A stretch of 32,000 nt of DNA. It comes from Microcystis aeruginosa NIES-843 (GTDB lineage Bacteria; Cyanobacteriota; Cyanobacteriia; Cyanobacteriales; Microcystaceae). Shown piece after piece: positions 2,620 to 28,255 of this stretch. Location of the stretch: contig NC_010296.1 of the NCBI RefSeq assembly GCF_000010625.1, positions 5,220,001 through 5,252,000 on the forward strand, in the 5' to 3' direction. Both the position numbers and the translations under genes were made by a program. Each line of letters starts with the position of its first letter. Within the stretch, counting starts at the first letter, position 1. The notes below the pieces were generated by a model. It was not told the origin of the DNA and searched no databases. It worked only from the letters and a program-made list of their open reading frames with translations.

Positions 2620-5256
2620 CTAAACCGTCTTACTTTTGCTGGTTTTACTGCCTGGGGAAGTAGTTTTTTTGGTCGTGCTAGAAGTAGTTTTCTTAGTAGT
2701 GGTTTTCTTGGCAGTGGTTGTCTTGGCCGCTAGGGCGACTAAAGCTTGTTCTAGAGTCAGGGTTTCGGCGGTTTCTCCTTCGGGAATCTTGGCGTTGGTC
2801 TTACCGTGCTTGATATAAACTCCGTAGGGACCTTCGTACAATCCCACGGATTCCCCATCGTCGGGATGTTTACCCAATTCTTTTAAGGGTGGTTTGGTGG
2901 AACCGCGGGCGCTGCGAGTTTTTTTCGGTTCGGCTAATAAGGCCAAAGCTCGATCGAGGGTTATGGTTAAGACATCATCGCCGGCTTTCAGGGAACGATA
3001 TTCTTTTTCCTTACCCTGTTCCTGAACTATATAGGGGCCAAAACGACCTAAGCTGGCTTTAATTTTGCCTCCGGTGAGGGGATGGGTTCCCAGTAGTCGC
3101 GGCAGTGCCAATAAACCCACCGCTTGTTCGAGGGTGACATCCTCTGGTTTGACTCCTTTGGGTAGGGAGGCGCGTTTCGGTTTGGGGTTGTCATCGCTGA
3201 CATCTCCTAACTGGACGTAGGGGCCGTAACTACCCACGAGCAGATAAATTGGCTCTCCGCTGTCGGGATGAAGACCTAATTTATCGGGACCCTCGGTTTT
3301 CTGTCGCAGCAGGGTTTCTACCTGTTCGGGGTTGAGGTCGGCGGGGGTTAAATCGGCGGGGATGGAAGCGGTGAGGATTTGATCGCCTCGGGAGACTTCC
3401 AGATAGGGACCGTATTTGCCGATCTTGATAGTTGCCTGTAAATCCTCTAAAATCACCGATTTGGCGGTGCTAGAGTTAATTTGACTCTCGCGCTCTTTTA
3501 CTTGGCTTTCTAGCCCTTTTTCGCCGCGATAGAAGCGATCGAGATAGGGCAACCATTGAGCGGAACCAGTGGCGATATCGTCGAGAGTTTCCTCCATTTT
3601 CGAGGTAAATTTGGGATCTACCAGGTCGGGGAAATGATTTTCTAACAAACTAACCACGGCAAAAGCGGTGAAGGTGGGAATCAAGGTTTTATTCCGCATT
3701 TGGGCATAACCGCGATCGATAATTGTGCCGAGAATGGTGGCGTAGGTGCTGGGTCGCCCGATTCCTTCACTTTCGAGGGTTTTTACGAGGGAGGCTTCGC
3801 TATAACGGGCGGGGGGTTGGGTATCGTGGCTAATGGCTTCTAGTTGGCGACAATTGGGGGTATCACCGACGCTGAGGGCGGGTAAGATTATTTCTTGGTC
3901 GTCGATGGCGGCTTCGGGATCGTCGGAACCTTCCACATAGGCGCGGAAAAAGCCGGGGAAGTCGATTCTTTTGCCGGAGGAGCGAAATCCGGCATTTTCT
4001 ACCTGAATATTAACGGCGATCTGGGTAATGCGGGCATCGGCCATCTGTGAGGCGACGGTACGTTTCCAGATTAGGTCGTAGAGGGCGAATTCTAGTCCGC
4101 TCAGTCCGGTTTCCCGGGGCAGGCGAAAGCTACTACCGGCGGGCCGGATGGCTTCGTGGGCCTCCTGTGCGCCTTTGCTTTTGGTGGTGTACTGCCGGGG
4201 TTGGGGACTGAGGTAATTTTTTCCGTACATTTGTTCTACACAATTGCGGGCGGCGGTGATGGCCTGATCGGAAAGATGGACGGAATCGGTCCGCATATAG
4301 GTGATGTAGCCCTGTTCGTAGAGATTTTGGGCGATTCGCATGGTGTCGCGGGCGGATATGCCCAGTTTCCGGTTAGCCTCTTGCTGTAGGGTGGAGGTGG
4401 TGAAGGGGGGGGAAGGTTTGCGAGTGGTGGGTTTTTCTTCGGTGTGGCTAACGCGCCAGATTTTGTCTTCGATGCGTTCTTTTAAGGCGGCGGCGGTGGC
4501 TTGATCCAAAAGTGTCACCTGGCGACCGGGGAGCAGTCTGCCGGTGTCGGCATCGAAATCGCTGCCATTTGCCACTTTTTGACCGTTTAAGGTGACTAAT
4601 TTCGACTCGAATTGATTTTTGTCTTTTTCGAGGGTGGCTTTCAGGTCCCAATAATTGGCGGTTTTAAAGGCTCGTCGTTCTCGTTCCCGTTGTACGAGCA
4701 GACGTACCGCCACGGATTGCACCCGGCCGGCGGATAACCCTTTGGAGATTTTTTTCCAAAGTAGGGGGGAGAGGGTATAACCGTAGAGGCGATCGAGTAT
4801 GCGGCGGGTTTCTTGGGCGTGAACTAAATTTTCGTCGATGGAGCGACAATTTTTGAGGGCGGCTTGGATTGCCTCTTTGGTGATTTCGTGAAATACCATC
4901 CTTTTGGTGGGTATTTTCGGGTTGAGTACCTGCAAGAGATGCCAACTGATGCTTTCGCCTTCCCGATCTTCGTCGGTGGCGAGGATCAGTTCGCTGGCCC
5001 CTTTGAGGGCTTCTTTTAATTCTTTGACGACTTTACTTTTGGTTTTGGGGACGACGTAGAGGGGGTCGAAATCGTTCTCCACATCTACGCCTAAGTTGGC
5101 CCAGGATTTGTCTTTGTGGGCGGGGGGAATTTCTTCGGCAGAGGCGGGCAGATCGCGGATGTGGCCCATGGAGGCTTGGACTCGATAGCCGCTAGGCAGA
5201 TAATTGCTGATCGTCCGAGCTTTGGTGGGGGATTCGACAATAACCAGGGTTGACAT
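2620..5256 (-). CDS. topA: DNA topoisomerase I
   Basis: 878-aa ORF with an N-terminal Toprim ([21 protein letters not shown]), the catalytic-Tyr motif [10 protein letters not shown], and repeated C-terminal Topo-I repeats (GPYVQLG / GPYIVQ / [10 protein letters not shown]). It ends in a Lys/Thr-rich tail ([29 protein letters not shown]). Confidence 0.97.
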
Positions 5257-22240: not shown

Positions 22241-23770
22241 ATGGTGGAAAATCGAGTTTTTAATACTGGTTCTTTGACTCTAGACACGGAAAAAGAGCAT
22301 ATCTTTGTGTCCGTGACTCCAGACTATCAAAAAGGCCCCGGCATTCAACGGGATGGTATAACTCCTCCCAGAATGCAGGATCCTCATGCAGTGCCGGATA
22401 TAATGTATAATCGACTTGGTCAAATTGCTATTCCTGGCCTAGACTCTACGACCAATGCTTACGAGCAGAGAGCGGGTACTTGGACACTTTATCATCATCT
22501 CAAAGAATTCTGCGATCAGCGAGGACAGGATTGGCTCATTATTGGCGCCCAAGGTTGCGGGGATCTAACGATGAATCCGTGGCATCTTGCCTATCTTGGC
22601 CCTAATTACTACATAAAATCCTTGCAAAATCAATTATGTGGAATGTTTCTCCCCGGAGACCCGCAAGACCCGATCGATCGTCGCATCTATCGGTGTTTGG
22701 TCAAATGGTGTGATGCTATGGCTACACACCTCGGCCATCGTTATGAATTTTTGGATTTAAGGTTTATGGCTGGAGGCGCAAATATAATACAGATTAACGA
22801 TCCGCAAGTGGCTCGCAGATATAATCGTCATTTAGCAGGACTACCGGGATACGATGCTAATTTACAGAATATCGCCCCATTTTTAGAGTTTGCCCTAGGG
22901 GGAAAAACTATCATTCAACAAGGTGATGTGGTTCCCCTATTTACTGCTATCGATCGATTCCAAGATGTACGCCATATTTTTTGCCTGCCTTATCAAATTC
23001 CCTGTGCGGGGAATTTTAGGAGGCAGGGTATTAATACAATTAACTTGGGGGAATATCAACTCTATGGCGATTTGAATGCCAGGCGTGCCGCTTTAAACGG
23101 ACCGATTATCGTAGAAACTCAATTAATTTCTCCCGGTGGTTTTCTGAACATCAATCTGGCTAATCCTGCTGTCGCGAGGGAATTAGATGAACAGCAGTTT
23201 AAACGGGTTGATTTTTCTCCGCGTCGGGCGGGAGAATATTTTCCTTACCCCGGAGGAGATACGGTAGAAATTTACTTTCCCAAGAGCATCTATCCTTTCG
23301 GAATTTTGGGAATGTCCGGTCAAAAAATTATCTGTTTTGCGTCCTCGGGATTATCGGCAAAAATCGGCAATACCCTAGAAGGGATTACCTTAATTATGAG
23401 CGATGGATTCGGTGCGGAAGAAGCGATGGTTTTAGACGAAGGATGTGACGTTTTTCAAATGATCAATCCCATGAGGGATGATCATGCTTTCACTTATACC
23501 AACGATGAATTATTGGATAGAGTGTTAGCCTTTACCCACGATCAAATGCTTTCAGATACGGCTGCAAGCACTAGAAATCCGGTGAATGGTCCCGCATTAG
23601 GTGGAGACATGAGACAATGGCCTCTCAATCAAAATTTATTGAACCAAGTGGAAATTGATTATGGCATTAGAGCAGCTGGTCTAGATTATACAGATATCTT
23701 TCCGGTCAGGTTAAGTCGCTCGCAAATCAGAAGTATTTTGATTGTTGCTGTCCCAAAAAATCCTCAATAG
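22241..23770 (+). CDS. Hypothetical 509-aa protein; C-terminal region possibly phosphodiester-glycosidase (NAGPA/DUF2233)-like
   Basis: A strong RBS (GGGAGGTGTTATG) precedes a long ORF. The only resemblance I can see is GILGMSGQKIICFASSG...GNTLEGITLIMSDGFGAEEAMVLDEGCDVFQMI...RSQIRSILIV against the NAGPA pattern (xxGxxxdGxlxlvvvDG...GxTlxElaxxmxxlGaxxAlnLDGGGS...Rxxxxal.v). This is weak. Confidence 0.6.
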   Translation: MVENRVFNTGSLTLDTEKEHIFVSVTPDYQKGPGIQRDGITPPRMQDPHAVPDIMYNRLGQIAIPGLDSTTNAYEQRAGTWTLYHHLKEFCDQRGQDWLIIGAQGCGDLTMNPWHLAYLGPNYYIKSLQNQLCGMFLPGDPQDPIDRRIYRCLVKWCDAMATHLGHRYEFLDLRFMAGGANIIQINDPQVARRYNRHLAGLPGYDANLQNIAPFLEFALGGKTIIQQGDVVPLFTAIDRFQDVRHIFCLPYQIPCAGNFRRQGINTINLGEYQLYGDLNARRAALNGPIIVETQLISPGGFLNINLANPAVARELDEQQFKRVDFSPRRAGEYFPYPGGDTVEIYFPKSIYPFGILGMSGQKIICFASSGLSAKIGNTLEGITLIMSDGFGAEEAMVLDEGCDVFQMINPMRDDHAFTYTNDELLDRVLAFTHDQMLSDTAASTRNPVNGPALGGDMRQWPLNQNLLNQVEIDYGIRAAGLDYTDIFPVRLSRSQIRSILIVAVPKNPQ

Positions 23771-23939
23771 GGAGATTCAACCCGGTGCGTCTCCATTTTG
23801 TAGAAATACCTAGGGTTTGAACGAACCAATTGGCGATAGCAATCTCGGCAATGTTCCGCTTGCCTTATTCGCTAAAAAGCATACAGGATAAAGGTTACAG
23901 CAATTTTAAAACCCTTCCCTTAAAAAATTAAGCGAACAA

Positions 23940-24306
23940 TGAGTTATTACCCTTTGCCGTTCTCAGCAATACTGATGACCCCGAACAGGTGTTAAGTCAG
24001 GTGTCCCGTTCTCTAGAAACTATCTCTCAAAAACGGGTGCAAAGCAATCTCGCTGCCGCTACCAGTATTCTCGCCGGGTTAGTATTAAATCGAGAGACGA
24101 TAAAAAAAATCCTTTGGAGTGACATTATGAGAGAATCAGTCATCTATCAAGATATTTTAGAGGAAGGCAGAGAGGAAGGAGCATTAACCGCTAAATTAAA
24201 CTCTATTCCCCGTTTATTGGCTTTAGGGTGAAGTGTAGAACAAATTGCCCAAACTTTAGACTTAGATATTGAACAAGTACCACAAGTCATTGAGGGACAA
24301 AATTGA
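23940..24306 (+). pseudogene. 5'-truncated Rpn-like gene copy (head B remnant, hinge and tail T1) with an internal TGA
   Basis: 23940-24180 matches 26416-26656 almost base for base, so the first ~135 codons are missing. The frame continues ...YQDILEEGREEGALTAKLNSIPRLLALG*SVEQIAQTLDLDIEQVPQVIEGQN*. The TGA at 24229-24231 corresponds to TTA in the sister relic at 25135-25137. Confidence 0.75.
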
Positions 24307-25128
24307 GTGAAAACGGACAGTATTTTCTATCGTCTCTTTCAGACTTTTCCTGAAAGTTTCTTTGATTTGCTCAATCTTCCCCCAGAAACCGTCAATCATT
24401 ATCAATTTTCCTCCCTAGAAGTTAAACAACTCGCTTTTCGTTTAGATGGGGTCTTTCTTCCTGATAACCTTAATGAACCGATTTACTTTGTTGAGGTACA
24501 ATTTCAAAAAGATGAACGGTTTTACTCGCGCTTTTTTAGTGAAATATTTCTCTATTTTCATCAAAGTGAGAGTAATAACAATTGGCAAGGGGTGATCATT
24601 TATCCTCATCCTGGAATTGAAAATAGTCCCAAATCTCGTTATCAAGAATTCTTTGAGTCAGGACGGGTTAACTGTTATTATCTGAATCAATTAGATGAGG
24701 GGGATTCTCTGGGGGTAAAAGTGTTACAATTAATTGTGGAATCGGAACCAAACACCTTAGCCCAAGGAAAAGAACTGATTCAACAAGTTAGACAACAATT
24801 TCAGGAGTCTTTAAAAAGACAGGACATTCTAGAATTAATTGAGACAATTCTCATTTATAAATTACCGAAATTAAACCGTAAGGAGATAGAAGCTATGTTT
24901 AGTTTAAGTGATTTAAGAGAAACTAAGGTTTATCAAGAAGCTTTAGAGGAAGGAGAATTATCCGCTAAAAAAAGCCTAATTTTGCGTCAGCTAAACTTAA
25001 AGCTAGGTTCTATTCCTTTAAATATAGAACAAAAAATTAAACAGTTAAATCCTAATCAACTGGATAATTTGGCTCTTGCTTTATTGGATTTTTCGGATTT
25101 GGAAGATTTGCACCAATGGTTAAATTAA
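24307..25128 (+). CDS. Rpn/YhgA-like putative PD-(D/E)XK nuclease (DUF2887-type head A, DUF4351-like tail T2)
   Basis: GTG start preceded by GAGGGA. MKTDSIFYRLFQTFPESFF ... YFVEVQFQKDERFYSRFFSEIFLYF is typical of the cyanobacterial DUF2887/Rpn-family head as I recall it. The tail LILRQLNLKLGSIPLNIEQKIKQLNPNQLDNLALALLDFSDLEDLHQWLN is DUF4351-like. Confidence 0.8.
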   Translation: MKTDSIFYRLFQTFPESFFDLLNLPPETVNHYQFSSLEVKQLAFRLDGVFLPDNLNEPIYFVEVQFQKDERFYSRFFSEIFLYFHQSESNNNWQGVIIYPHPGIENSPKSRYQEFFESGRVNCYYLNQLDEGDSLGVKVLQLIVESEPNTLAQGKELIQQVRQQFQESLKRQDILELIETILIYKLPKLNRKEIEAMFSLSDLRETKVYQEALEEGELSAKKSLILRQLNLKLGSIPLNIEQKIKQLNPNQLDNLALALLDFSDLEDLHQWLN

Positions 25129-25212
25129 GTAGGATTAAGTGTAGAACAAATTGCCCAAGCTTTAGACTTAGAAATTGAACAAGTACCAGAAGTCATTGAG
25201 GGACAAAATTGA

Positions 25213-26019
25213 GTGAAAACGGACAGTATTTTCTATCGTCTCTTTGAGACTTTTCCCGAAAGTTTCTTTGATTTGCTCAATCTTCCCCCAGAAACCGTCA
25301 ATCATTATCAATTTTCCTCCCTAGAAGTTAAACAACTCGCTTTTCGTTTAGATGGGGTCTTTCTTCCTGATAACCTTAATGAACCGATTTACTTTGTTGA
25401 GGTACAATTTCAAAAAGATGAACGGTTTTACTCGCGCTTTTTTAGTGAAATATTTCTCTATTTTCATCAAAGTGAGAGTAATAACAATTGGCAAGGGGTG
25501 ATCATTTATCCTCATCCTGGAATTGAAAATAGTCCCAAATCTCGTTATCAAGAATTCTTTGAGTCAGGACGGGTTAACTGTTATTATCTGAATCAATTAG
25601 ATGAGGGGGATTCTCTGGGGGTAAAAGTGTTACAATTAATTGTGGAATCGGAACCAAACACCTTAGCCCAAGGAAAAGAACTGATTCAACAAGTTAGACA
25701 ACAATTTCAGGAGTCTTTAAAAAGAGAGGACATTCTAGAATTAATTGAGACAATTCTCATTTATAAATTACCGAAATTAAACCGTAAGGAGATAGAAGCT
25801 ATGTTTAGTTTAAGTGATTTAAGAGAAACTAAGGTTTATCAAGAAGCTTTAGAGGAAGGCAAAGAGGAAGGCGAGGAAAAGGGAAAAGAAGAAAAAGCCA
25901 GACAAATTGCCCTGAAAATGATATCTGCTGGTTTTCCTATCCCAGAAATCGCCCAATTTACCGATTTATCCCCCGACGCGATCGAGGAATTACAAAGGCA
26001 GAACGCTCGCGATGTTTGA
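25213..26019 (+). CDS. Rpn/YhgA-like putative nuclease (head A, tail T3)
   Basis: The first ~216 codons are near-identical to gene 24307-25128 (906-bp period). After YQEALEEG the tail switches to KEEGEEKGKEEKARQIALKMISAGFPIPEIAQFTDLSPDAIEELQRQ, which is homologous to the tail of gene 26012-26842. Confidence 0.8.
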   Translation: MKTDSIFYRLFETFPESFFDLLNLPPETVNHYQFSSLEVKQLAFRLDGVFLPDNLNEPIYFVEVQFQKDERFYSRFFSEIFLYFHQSESNNNWQGVIIYPHPGIENSPKSRYQEFFESGRVNCYYLNQLDEGDSLGVKVLQLIVESEPNTLAQGKELIQQVRQQFQESLKREDILELIETILIYKLPKLNRKEIEAMFSLSDLRETKVYQEALEEGKEEGEEKGKEEKARQIALKMISAGFPIPEIAQFTDLSPDAIEELQRQNARDV

Positions 26020-26842
26020 TAATATTTGTAAATTTATCGCCGAAAACTTCTCCGATGATCTAGCCACTTGGTTATTGGGTTCTCCCCTCCCCTTAACCGT
26101 CCTCGACCCGACGGAATTACAATTAGACCCCATTCGTGCCGATTCTCTGATTTTTTTGCAGTCAGAGGAATTGATTCTCCATACTGAATTTCAAACCGAC
26201 CCCGACTCCAAGATTCCTTTCCGAATGCTCGATTATCGCATTCGCGTCTATCGTCGTCATCCCCAAAAACCAATGCGTCAAGTGGTAATTTATCTGCGAC
26301 GCAGTGATTCCCCCCTAGTACAAGAAAATACTTTCCGTCTGGGGGAAACTTTTCATTCTTTTCAAGTCATCCGTCTTTGGGAAGAAAATACGCCGCAATT
26401 TTTCCATCAACCCGGTTTATTACCCTTTGCCGTCCTCAGCAATACCGATGATCCCGAACAGGTGTTAAGTCAGGTGTCCCGTTCTCTAGAAACTATCTCT
26501 CAAAAACAGGTGCAAAGCAATCTCGCCGCCGCCACCAGTATTCTCGCTGGGTTAGTATTAAATCGAGAGACGATTAAAAAAATCCTTCGGAGTGACATTA
26601 TGAGAGAATCCGTCATCTATCAAGATATTTTAGAGGAAGGCAGAGAGGAAGGCAGAGAGGAAGGCAGAGAGGAAGGCAGAGAGGAAGGCAAAGAGGAAGG
26701 CAAAGAGGAGGGAAAAAAAGAAAAAGCTCGACAAATTGCCCTAAAAATGCTATCTGCTGGCTTTCATGTCCCAGAAATCGCCCAATTTACTGATTTATCC
26801 CCCGCAACTATCGAGGAATTACAAAGACAGCAGCACAATTAA
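26012..26842 (+). CDS. Rpn/YhgA-like putative nuclease (head B, (EEGR/K)n hinge, tail T3)
   Basis: MFDNICKFIAENFSDDLATWLLG ... DSLIFLQSEELILHTEFQTDPDSKIPFRMLDYRIRVYRRH is an Rpn-family-type head (D...E.Q/K core). The start overlaps the previous stop (ATGTTTGA, 26012-26019). Confidence 0.8.
   Translation: MFDNICKFIAENFSDDLATWLLGSPLPLTVLDPTELQLDPIRADSLIFLQSEELILHTEFQTDPDSKIPFRMLDYRIRVYRRHPQKPMRQVVIYLRRSDSPLVQENTFRLGETFHSFQVIRLWEENTPQFFHQPGLLPFAVLSNTDDPEQVLSQVSRSLETISQKQVQSNLAAATSILAGLVLNRETIKKILRSDIMRESVIYQDILEEGREEGREEGREEGREEGKEEGKEEGKKEKARQIALKMLSAGFHVPEIAQFTDLSPATIEELQRQQHN
26633..26716 (+). repeat. In-frame 12-bp coding microsatellite (GAGGAAGGCAGA x4, GAGGAAGGCAAA x2, one degenerate unit) encoding (EEGR)4(EEGK)2
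   Basis: Perfect units start at 26633, 26645, 26657, 26669, 26681 and 26693. Paralogues have only 1-2 units at the same position (24163-24180; 25852-25875). Confidence 0.9.
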
Positions 26843-26858
26843 AGCTTTTAACCGCAAA

Positions 26859-26898
26859 GGGTGGGGAATTAGGAAAATTTCGGCTCATCTCCCCACCC
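26859..26898. terminator. Stem-loop between convergent genes (candidate terminator)
   Basis: GGGTGGGGA (26859-26867) and TCCCCACCC (26890-26898) form a 9-bp GC-rich stem with a 22-nt loop. A short T-run (TTTG) follows only on the minus strand. Confidence 0.4.
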
Positions 26899-26907
26899 CA
26901 AGCACGA

Positions 26908-27045
26908 TTAACGGCGTTTAGCGAGGCGACGCACCACTAAACCACTACCTAGTATGCCTAGTCCGATAATACTAGAAAGTTCGGGAGTGGACACATTACC
27001 AATATCACCCGAAATATCAGAAGTAACAAGGCGAAAGTTATCCAT
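26908..27045 (-). CDS. Miniature ORF consisting essentially of a PEP-CTERM-like sorting tail
   Basis: MDNFRLVTSDISGDIGNVSTPELSSIIGLGILGSGLVVRRLAKRR has a PEx motif, a Gly-rich hydrophobic helix and an Arg/Lys cluster. It has no signal peptide and no clear SD. The track version (TTG 27096) overlaps the aminotransferase 3' end. Confidence 0.4.
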   Translation of the reverse strand: MDNFRLVTSDISGDIGNVSTPELSSIIGLGILGSGLVVRRLAKRR

Positions 27046-27076
27046 TGCAGCATAACCACTGCTTAGAATATCGGTT

Positions 27077-28255
27077 TTATCCCAAAAAAGCCCCAATTTT
27101 CTCCACGGCAGCCTCTAGAATATCGGGATCGTGAACTAAGGCAAAACGCACATAACCCTCACCACCCTTACCAAAACCGGAACCGGGGGAAACAGCGACA
27201 CCGGTTTGGGCCACCAATTGCCGACAAAAATCGACGGAATTACCCGGCCAACTGGGGGGAATTTTCGCCCAAACATACATAGTGGCGGCCGGAGTGGCAA
27301 CCGGCCAACCGATGCGATTTAAGGCATTAATAAACACATCCCGGCGTTTTTGGAAGATAGCGACGGTTTCCTTGACCGAATCTTGATTACCGGTCAAAGC
27401 AGCGATCGCACCGTTGAGGATGCCCAAATACTGATTAAAATCAACCATGGCTTTAATCTGTCGCAAAGCCATAATTAACTGCGGGTTGCCAATGGCGAAA
27501 CCGATGCGAAAACCGCCCATATTATAGGACTTGGAAAAGGTAAAAAACTCGATCGAATTAGTTTTAGCTCGATCGGCCTGTAAAATTGACGGGGGGGGCG
27601 ATGTTCCCGCAAAAAAGATGTCTAGATAGGGAAAATCGTGGATTAAAACTAAATTATGCTGACGGCAAAAATCAACCGCTTTTTGGAAAAATGCCAAAGG
27701 TGCGATCGCTGTGGTGGGATTATGGGGATAACTCAAGACCATCAGCTTCGATTGTGCCAGCACTAGGTCAGGAATGTCCTCTAAAACCGGCAGAAAGTCA
27801 TTTTTTGCCAAAATTGGCATCCCGTAGATTTGACCGCCAGCAAGGGCAACACCGCCCAAATGGGAGGGATAACCCGGATCGAGGAGCAGGGCAAAATCCC
27901 CGGGGTTGAGAATGGCCAACGGTAGATGGGCCGTGCCTTCCTGAGAACCAATTAGGGGTAAAACCTCCGTTTCCGCATCGATGGGGACACCAAAGCGATC
28001 GCTATACCAGTTAGCGGCAGTTATTCGGAAGTCTCTGGTCCCATTATGGAGTAAATAGCCGTGGGTGTGAGGATCGTGGAGAGATCGTTCAATAGCATCG
28101 ACAACGTGGGGAGCAGCCCCAAGATCGGAGGAACCGAGCGAAAGATCGATAATGGTATTACCCGCTTCTCTACTGGCAGCTTTTGCCCGATCCATATCGG
28201 CAAAAACGTTGGATTGTAGTGCCTGTAAGCGGTGTGCTAGGGTTAAGTTATTCAT
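27077..28255 (-). CDS. Class I/II (fold-type I) PLP-dependent aminotransferase
   Basis: SYPHNPTT, the PLP-lysine motif FSKSYNMGGFRIGF, and an N-terminus (LQSNVFADMDRAK ... IIDLSLGSSDL) typical of AspC/DapC-like enzymes. ATG 28255 or GTG 28261 is the start. Confidence 0.85.
   Translation of the reverse strand: MNNLTLAHRLQALQSNVFADMDRAKAASREAGNTIIDLSLGSSDLGAAPHVVDAIERSLHDPHTHGYLLHNGTRDFRITAANWYSDRFGVPIDAETEVLPLIGSQEGTAHLPLAILNPGDFALLLDPGYPSHLGGVALAGGQIYGMPILAKNDFLPVLEDIPDLVLAQSKLMVLSYPHNPTTAIAPLAFFQKAVDFCRQHNLVLIHDFPYLDIFFAGTSPPPSILQADRAKTNSIEFFTFSKSYNMGGFRIGFAIGNPQLIMALRQIKAMVDFNQYLGILNGAIAALTGNQDSVKETVAIFQKRRDVFINALNRIGWPVATPAATMYVWAKIPPSWPGNSVDFCRQLVAQTGVAVSPGSGFGKGGEGYVRFALVHDPDILEAAVEKIGAFLG

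Follow-up and report, generated by a model that had tools for sequence, protein, structure and literature searches.

In the Rpn systems described by Zhong et al. 2023 (PMC10400941), a small protein, RpnS, binds the long form, RpnL, directly and blocks its toxicity, SOS induction, and DNA cleavage. The same study reports that the small protein is made by Rpn homologues of both E. coli and C. difficile, that RpnS genes standing apart often bear the annotation DUF4351, and that rpn arrays arise through tandem duplication. Rpn proteins also carry four-residue repeats that start 8 to 20 residues past the initiating Met and whose number varies among strains (PMC10400941). A cyanobacterial precedent cited in that paper comes from the type I-D CRISPR system of Synechocystis, Cas10d/Cas11d, in which an internal start yields a C-terminal small subunit. 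The literature that was searched makes no mention of a cyanobacterial RpnS. The subject here is a tandem array of three Rpn-type genes, all on the + strand, in the cyanobacterium Microcystis aeruginosa NIES-843. The array lies in a stretch of 32,000 nucleotides (contig NC_010296.1, positions 5,220,001 to 5,252,000), which is called the window and whose first letter is position 1 for all coordinates. Each gene contains an in-frame internal ATG with a Shine-Dalgarno (SD) motif in front of it. These ATGs are very probably real initiation sites, and the three genes are likely to be RpnL/RpnS gene-within-gene pairs, antitoxin function included.

Predicted internal starts in three Rpn-type genes

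The internal ATGs lie at 24895, 25801, and 26600 in genes 1, 2, and 3, respectively, and each is codon 197 of its gene. In genes 1 and 2 the ATG follows the SD motif AAGGAG (24880 to 24885, formed by codons K192-E193 of gene 1, and 25786 to 25791) after a spacer of 9 nt. In gene 3 the motif is CGGAG (26588 to 26592, codons R193-S194), and the spacer from its GGAG core (26589 to 26592) to the ATG is 7 nt. These coordinates, and those of a similar GGAG and ATG in a headless fragment upstream, had been given in the initial annotation, and all are correct on reading the sequence. Initiation at the three sites would give a protein of 77 aa from gene 1 (24895 to 25128; MFSLSDLRETKVYQEALEEG... and a DUF4351 tail), one of 72 aa from gene 2 (25801 to 26019), and one of 80 aa from gene 3 (26600 to 26842; MRESVIYQDILEEG, then (R/K)EEG repeats, then a helix-turn-helix [HTH] tail).

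The corresponding long forms differ in how heads and tails are combined. Gene 1 (24307 to 25128; GTG start in the open reading frame [ORF] list, 273 aa) consists, by Pfam, of head A, a DUF2887-type Rpn nuclease, followed by a hinge and a DUF4351 tail (residues 214 to 272, E about 3e-19 to 2.5e-18). Gene 2 (25213 to 26019; GTG start, 268 aa) joins a head A that is 99% identical to that of gene 1 to an HTH_Rpn_C-type tail, while gene 3 (26012 to 26842; ATG start, 276 aa) has a different Rpn nuclease head, head B, ahead of repeats and a tail of the HTH_Rpn_C type. The first two genes are recent duplicates: 24232 to 24953 and 25138 to 25859 are 99.2% identical over 722 nt, a block that includes the SD motif and stops 59 nt past the internal ATG, within ...ALEEG. 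The internal ATG with SD motif that was claimed for three paralogues is indeed present in all three but, given this duplication, the window supplies two independent cases, one with head A and one with head B.

Do these heads belong to the Rpn family? All three proteins score above the curated cutoff (52.1 bits) of TIGR01784, the NCBIfam model of the Rpn family recombination-promoting nuclease/putative transposase, with 70.3, 116.4, and 115.2 bits for genes 1, 2, and 3. Pfam DUF2887 covers residues 3 to 198 of genes 1 and 2, and heads A and B are mutually homologous (hhalign probability 97.4%, E = 1.3e-11). In blastp comparisons with E. coli RpnA, gene 2 (E = 1e-6) and gene 3 (E = 5e-7) gave alignments and gene 1 gave none. 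The invariant nuclease residues, D47/E63/Q65 in family A (alignment A1) and D44/E59/Q61 in family B (alignment A2), align with D63/E82/Q84 of RpnA, which are catalytic residues of the PD-(D/E)XK type. In the AlphaFold model of gene 3 (predicted local distance difference test [pLDDT], 81.7), an alpha/beta domain (residues 1 to 180) is followed by a long helix (201 to 248) and two short helices, and M197 is placed just ahead of the long helix. Foldseek searches with this full-length model returned weak matches (E 0.02 to 0.4) to PD-(D/E)XK nucleases; we know of no RpnL structure. The closest relatives are Microcystis proteins with 92 to 97% identity. Database relatives number more than 1,700 and more than 2,700 for the two heads and are annotated merely as "putative transposase."

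Conservation of the predicted start codon and its Shine-Dalgarno motif

The internal Met and its SD motif, whose conservation in homologues had been proposed as a check, are both conserved in families A and B. M197 is invariant in 113 of 113 family A homologues, at identities down to about 46% and with nearby hydrophobic positions varying, and in 99 of 99 family B homologues, at identities down to about 49%. The family B count comes from the independent protein search only, as one metagenome scan pattern contained the Met. A profile-profile alignment of the hinges, MFSLSDLRETKVYQEALEEG in family A and MRESVIYQDILEEG in family B, places the two Mets in different columns, six aligned codons apart. 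M197 of family A aligns with I191 of family B, a position where family B carries I, L, or V, and M197 of family B aligns with L203 of family A, which is Leu in 112 of the 113 homologues. Among family A homologues, moreover, the internal Met falls anywhere from codon 196 to codon 201. The shared codon 197, to which meaning had been attached, is therefore a coincidence and was rejected as a common coordinate. An invariant Met in one family thus faces Leu or Ile in the other, which favors a role as a start codon and disfavors a shared structural role.

The SD motif was tested by asking whether the codons just ahead of the Met depart from the codon usage of the gene set in question. The family A sample comprised 80 genomic loci (L001-L080) that yielded 76 distinct full-length ORFs, and that of family B comprised 80 metagenomic loci that yielded 69 ORFs. 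In family A, codon 192 (K, Q, or E) ends in G in 70 of 71 cases against a background of 26% (p = 3e-40), and GAG makes up 63 of 76 at codon 193 (background, 25%; p = 6e-26). At the control codon, Glu195, GAG accounts for just 13 of 60. Both codons are still skewed (34/35 and 30/39) among 39 representatives with less than 80% nucleotide identity, and over the 120 nt upstream of the Met a third-position skew is seen at codons 192 and 193 only. Where codon 193 is GAA, it mostly occurs with GGGAGGAA, so that the SD has moved by 3 nt. In family B, Arg193 is encoded by AGG or CGG in 69 of 69 ORFs (background, 19%; p = 6e-50) and Ser194 by AGY in 57 of 63 (background, 34%; p = 1e-20). The family B controls are flat: the invariant Ser200 is TCN in 69 of 69, and Arg198 is CGG once only. 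The GGAG core, built from [K/Q/E]-E in family A and from R-S in family B, is thus evidently kept by synonymous-site selection 9 nt (A) or 7 nt (B) before an invariant ATG.

Could the motif nonetheless be an accident, with K-E or R-S codons that by chance look like an SD ahead of an in-frame Met? AAG GAG is simply the code for Lys-Glu, and genes 1 and 2 are, as mentioned, duplicates. The base rate was measured in the 21 other long ORFs of the window by scoring a GGAG, GAGG, or AGGA core at a spacer of 4 to 11 nt: such a core stands ahead of 2 of 104 internal in-frame ATGs and ahead of about 3 of the 21 ORF starts. This base rate and the codon tests, with p values of 1e-20 to 1e-50 against the genes' own usage and flat controls, leave a chance origin next to no probability, and it is refuted by the codon-level tests in both families.

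The signals at the full-length starts look quite different. In family A, 31 of 37 representatives begin with GTG or TTG, and an SD core is found in 2 of the 37; family B genes begin with ATG, with an SD core in 2 of 21. By these counts, the initiation signals are stronger at the internal start than at the full-length one. In most family B rpn genes from outside Microcystis (L092-L159), a TAnAAT sequence resembling a -10 box ends about 7 to 9 nt before the full-length ATG and there is no SD, which suggests that the long-form mRNA of this family may be leaderless or nearly so. The region around the internal start is also less structured at the RNA level than the rest of the gene, by +2.05 kcal/mol in family B (p = 5e-8) and by +0.85 kcal/mol in family A (p = 0.03), which lends minor support to initiation there.

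The predicted small proteins and their free-standing counterparts

What would the products of the internal starts resemble? A profile of the predicted small proteins (alignment A3), in which the gene 2 product aligns with those of family B, finds the E. coli RpnA-S crystal structure (7TH0) with E = 2.5e-6 over residues 8 to 45 of 49. In gene 3, it is tail residues 229 to 266 that align to 7TH0. The profile is needed for significance, in that full-length gene 3 searched against the PDB finds RpnA-S at E = 0.29 only. Close homologues carry the annotation PF27070 (HTH_Rpn_C), and the modeled C-terminal part of gene 3, a long helix with two short ones, matches the shape reported for RpnA-S. A single-sequence model of the gene 1 small protein is all-helical (pLDDT, 81).

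The repeats point the same way. Four-residue repeats of variable number start 11 to 21 residues after the internal Met. The gene 3 small protein has LEEG from residue 11 and REEG repeats from residue 15, and the underlying DNA is a 12-nt tandem repeat of 6.5 copies (26632 to 26709; Tandem Repeats Finder, 98% matches) that encodes the (R/K)EEG units. Repeat number varies among family B orthologues; in family A orthologues, the extra repeats that follow residue 20 number between 0 and at least 7. Among Microcystis orthologues of gene 1, 0, 1, 2, or 4 extra (R/K)EEG or IEQG units are present, and the same head is joined to three alternative tails.

Small proteins of this kind are also encoded on their own. 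In locus L132, a 58-aa ORF (1545 to 1721, MKESVIYQ...) lies 11 nt past a full-length rpn gene and is equipped with an AAGGAG of its own. In L140, an 84-aa ORF (3213 to 3467, MQESVIYQ...) corresponds to the tail of the rpn gene close by but has fewer repeats. Both begin at the family B internal Met. An overlapping two-gene cassette (92 and 135 aa; L140:2480-3162) lies between the full-length rpn gene and the free-standing small-protein gene of the latter locus. Public databases hold many proteins of 58 to 98 aa that begin exactly at MFSLSDLRETKVYQ, with all three tail types, and ORFs that begin exactly at MFSLSDL, as the gene 1 small protein does. A search of 1.84 billion representatives with the gene 3 small protein was dominated by the repeats and is weakly informative; 12 short proteins begin at the hinge Met.

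These ORFs bear on a reading in which no separate protein is made and the motif and Met serve the full-length gene, either as an SD-like pause that aids folding of the head or as a recombination motif in the hinge. In its favor, the head domain gives way to the long helix exactly where the motif sits, there is a cluster of recombination breakpoints 59 nt downstream, and no internal promoter was detected. However, a pause or recombination site needs no invariant ATG, and the ATG occupies different aligned positions in the two families, each with its own SD at start-like spacing. The free-standing ORFs, some with their own AAGGAG, start at precisely this ATG, and the homologues in E. coli and C. 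difficile are known to produce the small protein. A role confined to the full-length gene is accordingly improbable.

One of the database proteins that begin at this Met is P0270 (66 aa), whose gene occupies a conserved locus in Microcystis and was found on at least 22 contigs. Because an in-frame TAA stands 30 nt ahead of the Met and the interval contains no other start, the Met is the sole place at which the ORF can begin. The gene is an orphan (L162:2940-3201 on the Microcystis chromosome CP046973.1, also L163-L166) and has no SD. A promoter-like TTAGTT-17-TATAAT lies about 27 nt upstream, and homology to rpn starts only about 12 nt before the ATG.

Why should the small protein be an inhibitor at all? 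It might be made internally and yet be a required partner of the long form, for instance a subunit that determines oligomeric state, DNA binding, or specificity. The conservation of Met and SD is compatible with a functional small product of any kind, the tails resemble HTH domains, and Cas10d/Cas11d, cited in PMC10400941, offers a precedent. The tail, however, is homologous to E. coli RpnA-S, which has been shown to block RpnA-L, and orphan small genes without an adjacent long gene fit a neutralizer better than an obligate subunit. The required partner is an unlikely alternative, though one with a little more to be said for it than a motif without a product. An internal in-frame start that gives an RpnS-type hinge-plus-tail protein, as first proposed in the initial annotation, is supported by the Rpn family membership of all three genes, the conservation of Met and SD, the free-standing ORFs, the tail homology, and the repeats.

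A model for the array and its relation to known systems

In the proposed model, initiation at the 5' end would give full-length RpnL, with nuclease head, hinge helix, and tail, while the internal SD would recruit ribosomes to the internal ATG and so give an RpnS-like protein of 72 to 80 aa consisting of hinge helix and tail only. If it behaves like its homologue E. coli RpnA-S, the small protein would dimerize with the identical, repeat-carrying helix of its own long form. Its binding would keep the nuclease inactive, making it an intragenic antitoxin until a trigger, for example phage infection, releases the nuclease. The contrast between strong internal signals (ATG and SD) and weak full-length ones (GTG/TTG, or ATG, with no SD) would favor a surplus of the small protein. 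We infer that the small proteins are made and that they bind and inhibit the long forms, which would be toxic or defensive. Toxicity or DNA cleavage by the long form and neutralization by the small form are carried over from E. coli RpnA, RpnB, and RpnP2, to which these genes are homologous, and it is homology only that suggests a defense role.

Several results weigh against this model. A promoter consensus scan found 8 sites where 6.7 are expected, which is chance level, and no codon-constrained -10 box was found within 120 nt upstream in family A. E. coli rpn genes have internal transcription start sites, whereas no conserved internal promoter was detected here; the full-length mRNA may also serve for translation of the small protein, or there may be a promoter that these tests miss. 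Initiation in cyanobacteria is less SD dependent, and motif strength may not mean high yield. A structure search with the model of the gene 1 DUF4351-type small protein returned nothing below E = 5 and no RpnA-S match. A PADLOC (2023) scan was without a hit, and the neighbors are housekeeping genes with no defense-island context, which leaves the defense role unsupported by context. Finally, the headless fragment (23944 to 24306), composed of a head B end that is 95.8% identical to gene 3, GGAG (24116 to 24119), ATG (24127), a hinge, and the third tail type, encodes a small ORF that stops at a TGA (24229 to 24231) after 34 aa, at a position where intact homologues have Leu. The antitoxin model had been said to explain why this copy persists, but a truncated ORF is not good evidence for a maintained antitoxin gene, and that role was rejected. 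The fragment is probably a copy in decay and no functional RpnSs gene; in other strains (L090, L117, and L148), the arrangement occurs intact, with 55 codons.

One candidate for an internal promoter, a -10-like TAT AAA TTx at Y184-K185-L186 in family A, was rejected: among the representatives, TAT and TAC are used 24 and 15 times and AAA and AAG 21 and 18 times, which shows no constraint.

Does the internal start have a single origin within the Rpn family? In E. coli rpnA, cacAAGGAGagtttaATG at M244 presents AAGGAG, 6 nt, and ATG, and the three Rpn lineages now compared place the Met at positions that are not homologous, lying 9, 12, and 18 residues ahead of the repeat helix. The start may have been re-created or moved within the family and not inherited as a fixed feature, and the antitoxin-to-toxin ratio in cyanobacteria may be set by translation with no internal promoter. 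The small protein would then have the strong SD-ATG, and the full-length protein a GTG or TTG without SD, or possibly a leaderless start. This extension of the model is tentative and falls somewhat short of an even chance.

The array also carries traces of its own history. The duplicated unit extends from a remnant of the third tail type to the hinge. Such untranslated remnants (…GLSVEQIAQALDLEIEQVPEVIEGQN) lie in frame at 24232 to 24306 and 25129 to 25212 and abut the GTGs of genes 1 and 2. The one in the gap between genes 1 and 2, VGLSVEQIAQALDLEIEQVPEVIEGQN (25129 to 25212, + strand), was recognized on conceptual translation by comparison with the intact tails of P0020 and P0267. Gene 1 looks like the outcome of a DUF4351 cassette, with its own stop, having been inserted into a third-type tail. 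The start of gene 3 overlaps the stop of gene 2 at 26012 to 26019 (ATGTTTGA), which suggests translational coupling within the array. On the - strand, a duplicated pair of 47-aa ORFs (24262 to 24405 and 25168 to 25311) runs across the 5' ends of genes 1 and 2 and is probably a mere by-product of the duplication. Directly upstream of the array is a 509-aa ORF (22241 to 23770) without a Pfam match, and the neighboring genes encode radical SAM, CpeS, HEAT/PBS lyase, aminotransferase, thioredoxin, and ABC permease proteins. An Rfam scan of 23000 to 27500 found nothing.

Rpn-family genes are very abundant in cyanobacteria, and if each has an internal antitoxin, thousands of small proteins are unannotated. 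If the model is true, tail shuffling and repeat variation in bloom-forming Microcystis would amount to diversification of toxin-antitoxin specificity, possibly driven by cyanophages. The codon-level test is of use in its own right, since it allows an internal start to be shown with nothing but sequence, and it also guides the design of clean synonymous knockouts.

How, then, does the locus compare with the systems already described? With the RpnL-RpnS pairs of E. coli (RpnA-E/RpnP2) it has in common the TIGR01784 family and the D...ExQ motif, an in-frame internal ATG with AAGGAG or GGAG ahead of a long C-terminal helix, a tail homologous to 7TH0, variable four-residue repeats encoded by dodecamers, tandem duplicated arrays, and free-standing small-protein genes. 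It differs in that the heads belong to cyanobacterial subfamilies (the DUF2887 type and a second type) with pairwise similarity to RpnA of only E about 1e-6. The distance from the internal Met to the first EG of the repeat helix is 12 residues in family B and 18 in family A, against 9 in E. coli RpnA. Full-length starts in family A are, unlike those of E. coli, mostly GTG or TTG without an SD. No defense-island context is seen here, and what is known of the system here comes from sequence.

The DUF4351/RpnSs genes, such as E. coli ypaA, are matched by hinge-plus-tail ORFs whose first Met is that of the internal start and which are located either past a full-length rpn gene (L132, L140) or alone (P0270); the sole headless copy in the window differs from them by its premature stop. 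Cas10d/Cas11d is likewise a cyanobacterial gene with an in-frame internal start and a C-terminal small partner of the long form, but the protein family is unrelated, and Cas11d is a required subunit and not an inhibitor. Overall, the proposed mechanism is the one known from E. coli, here extended to cyanobacteria, and not a new principle. What is modestly new is that the start positions are non-homologous among Rpn lineages and that the signals at the full-length starts are systematically weak.

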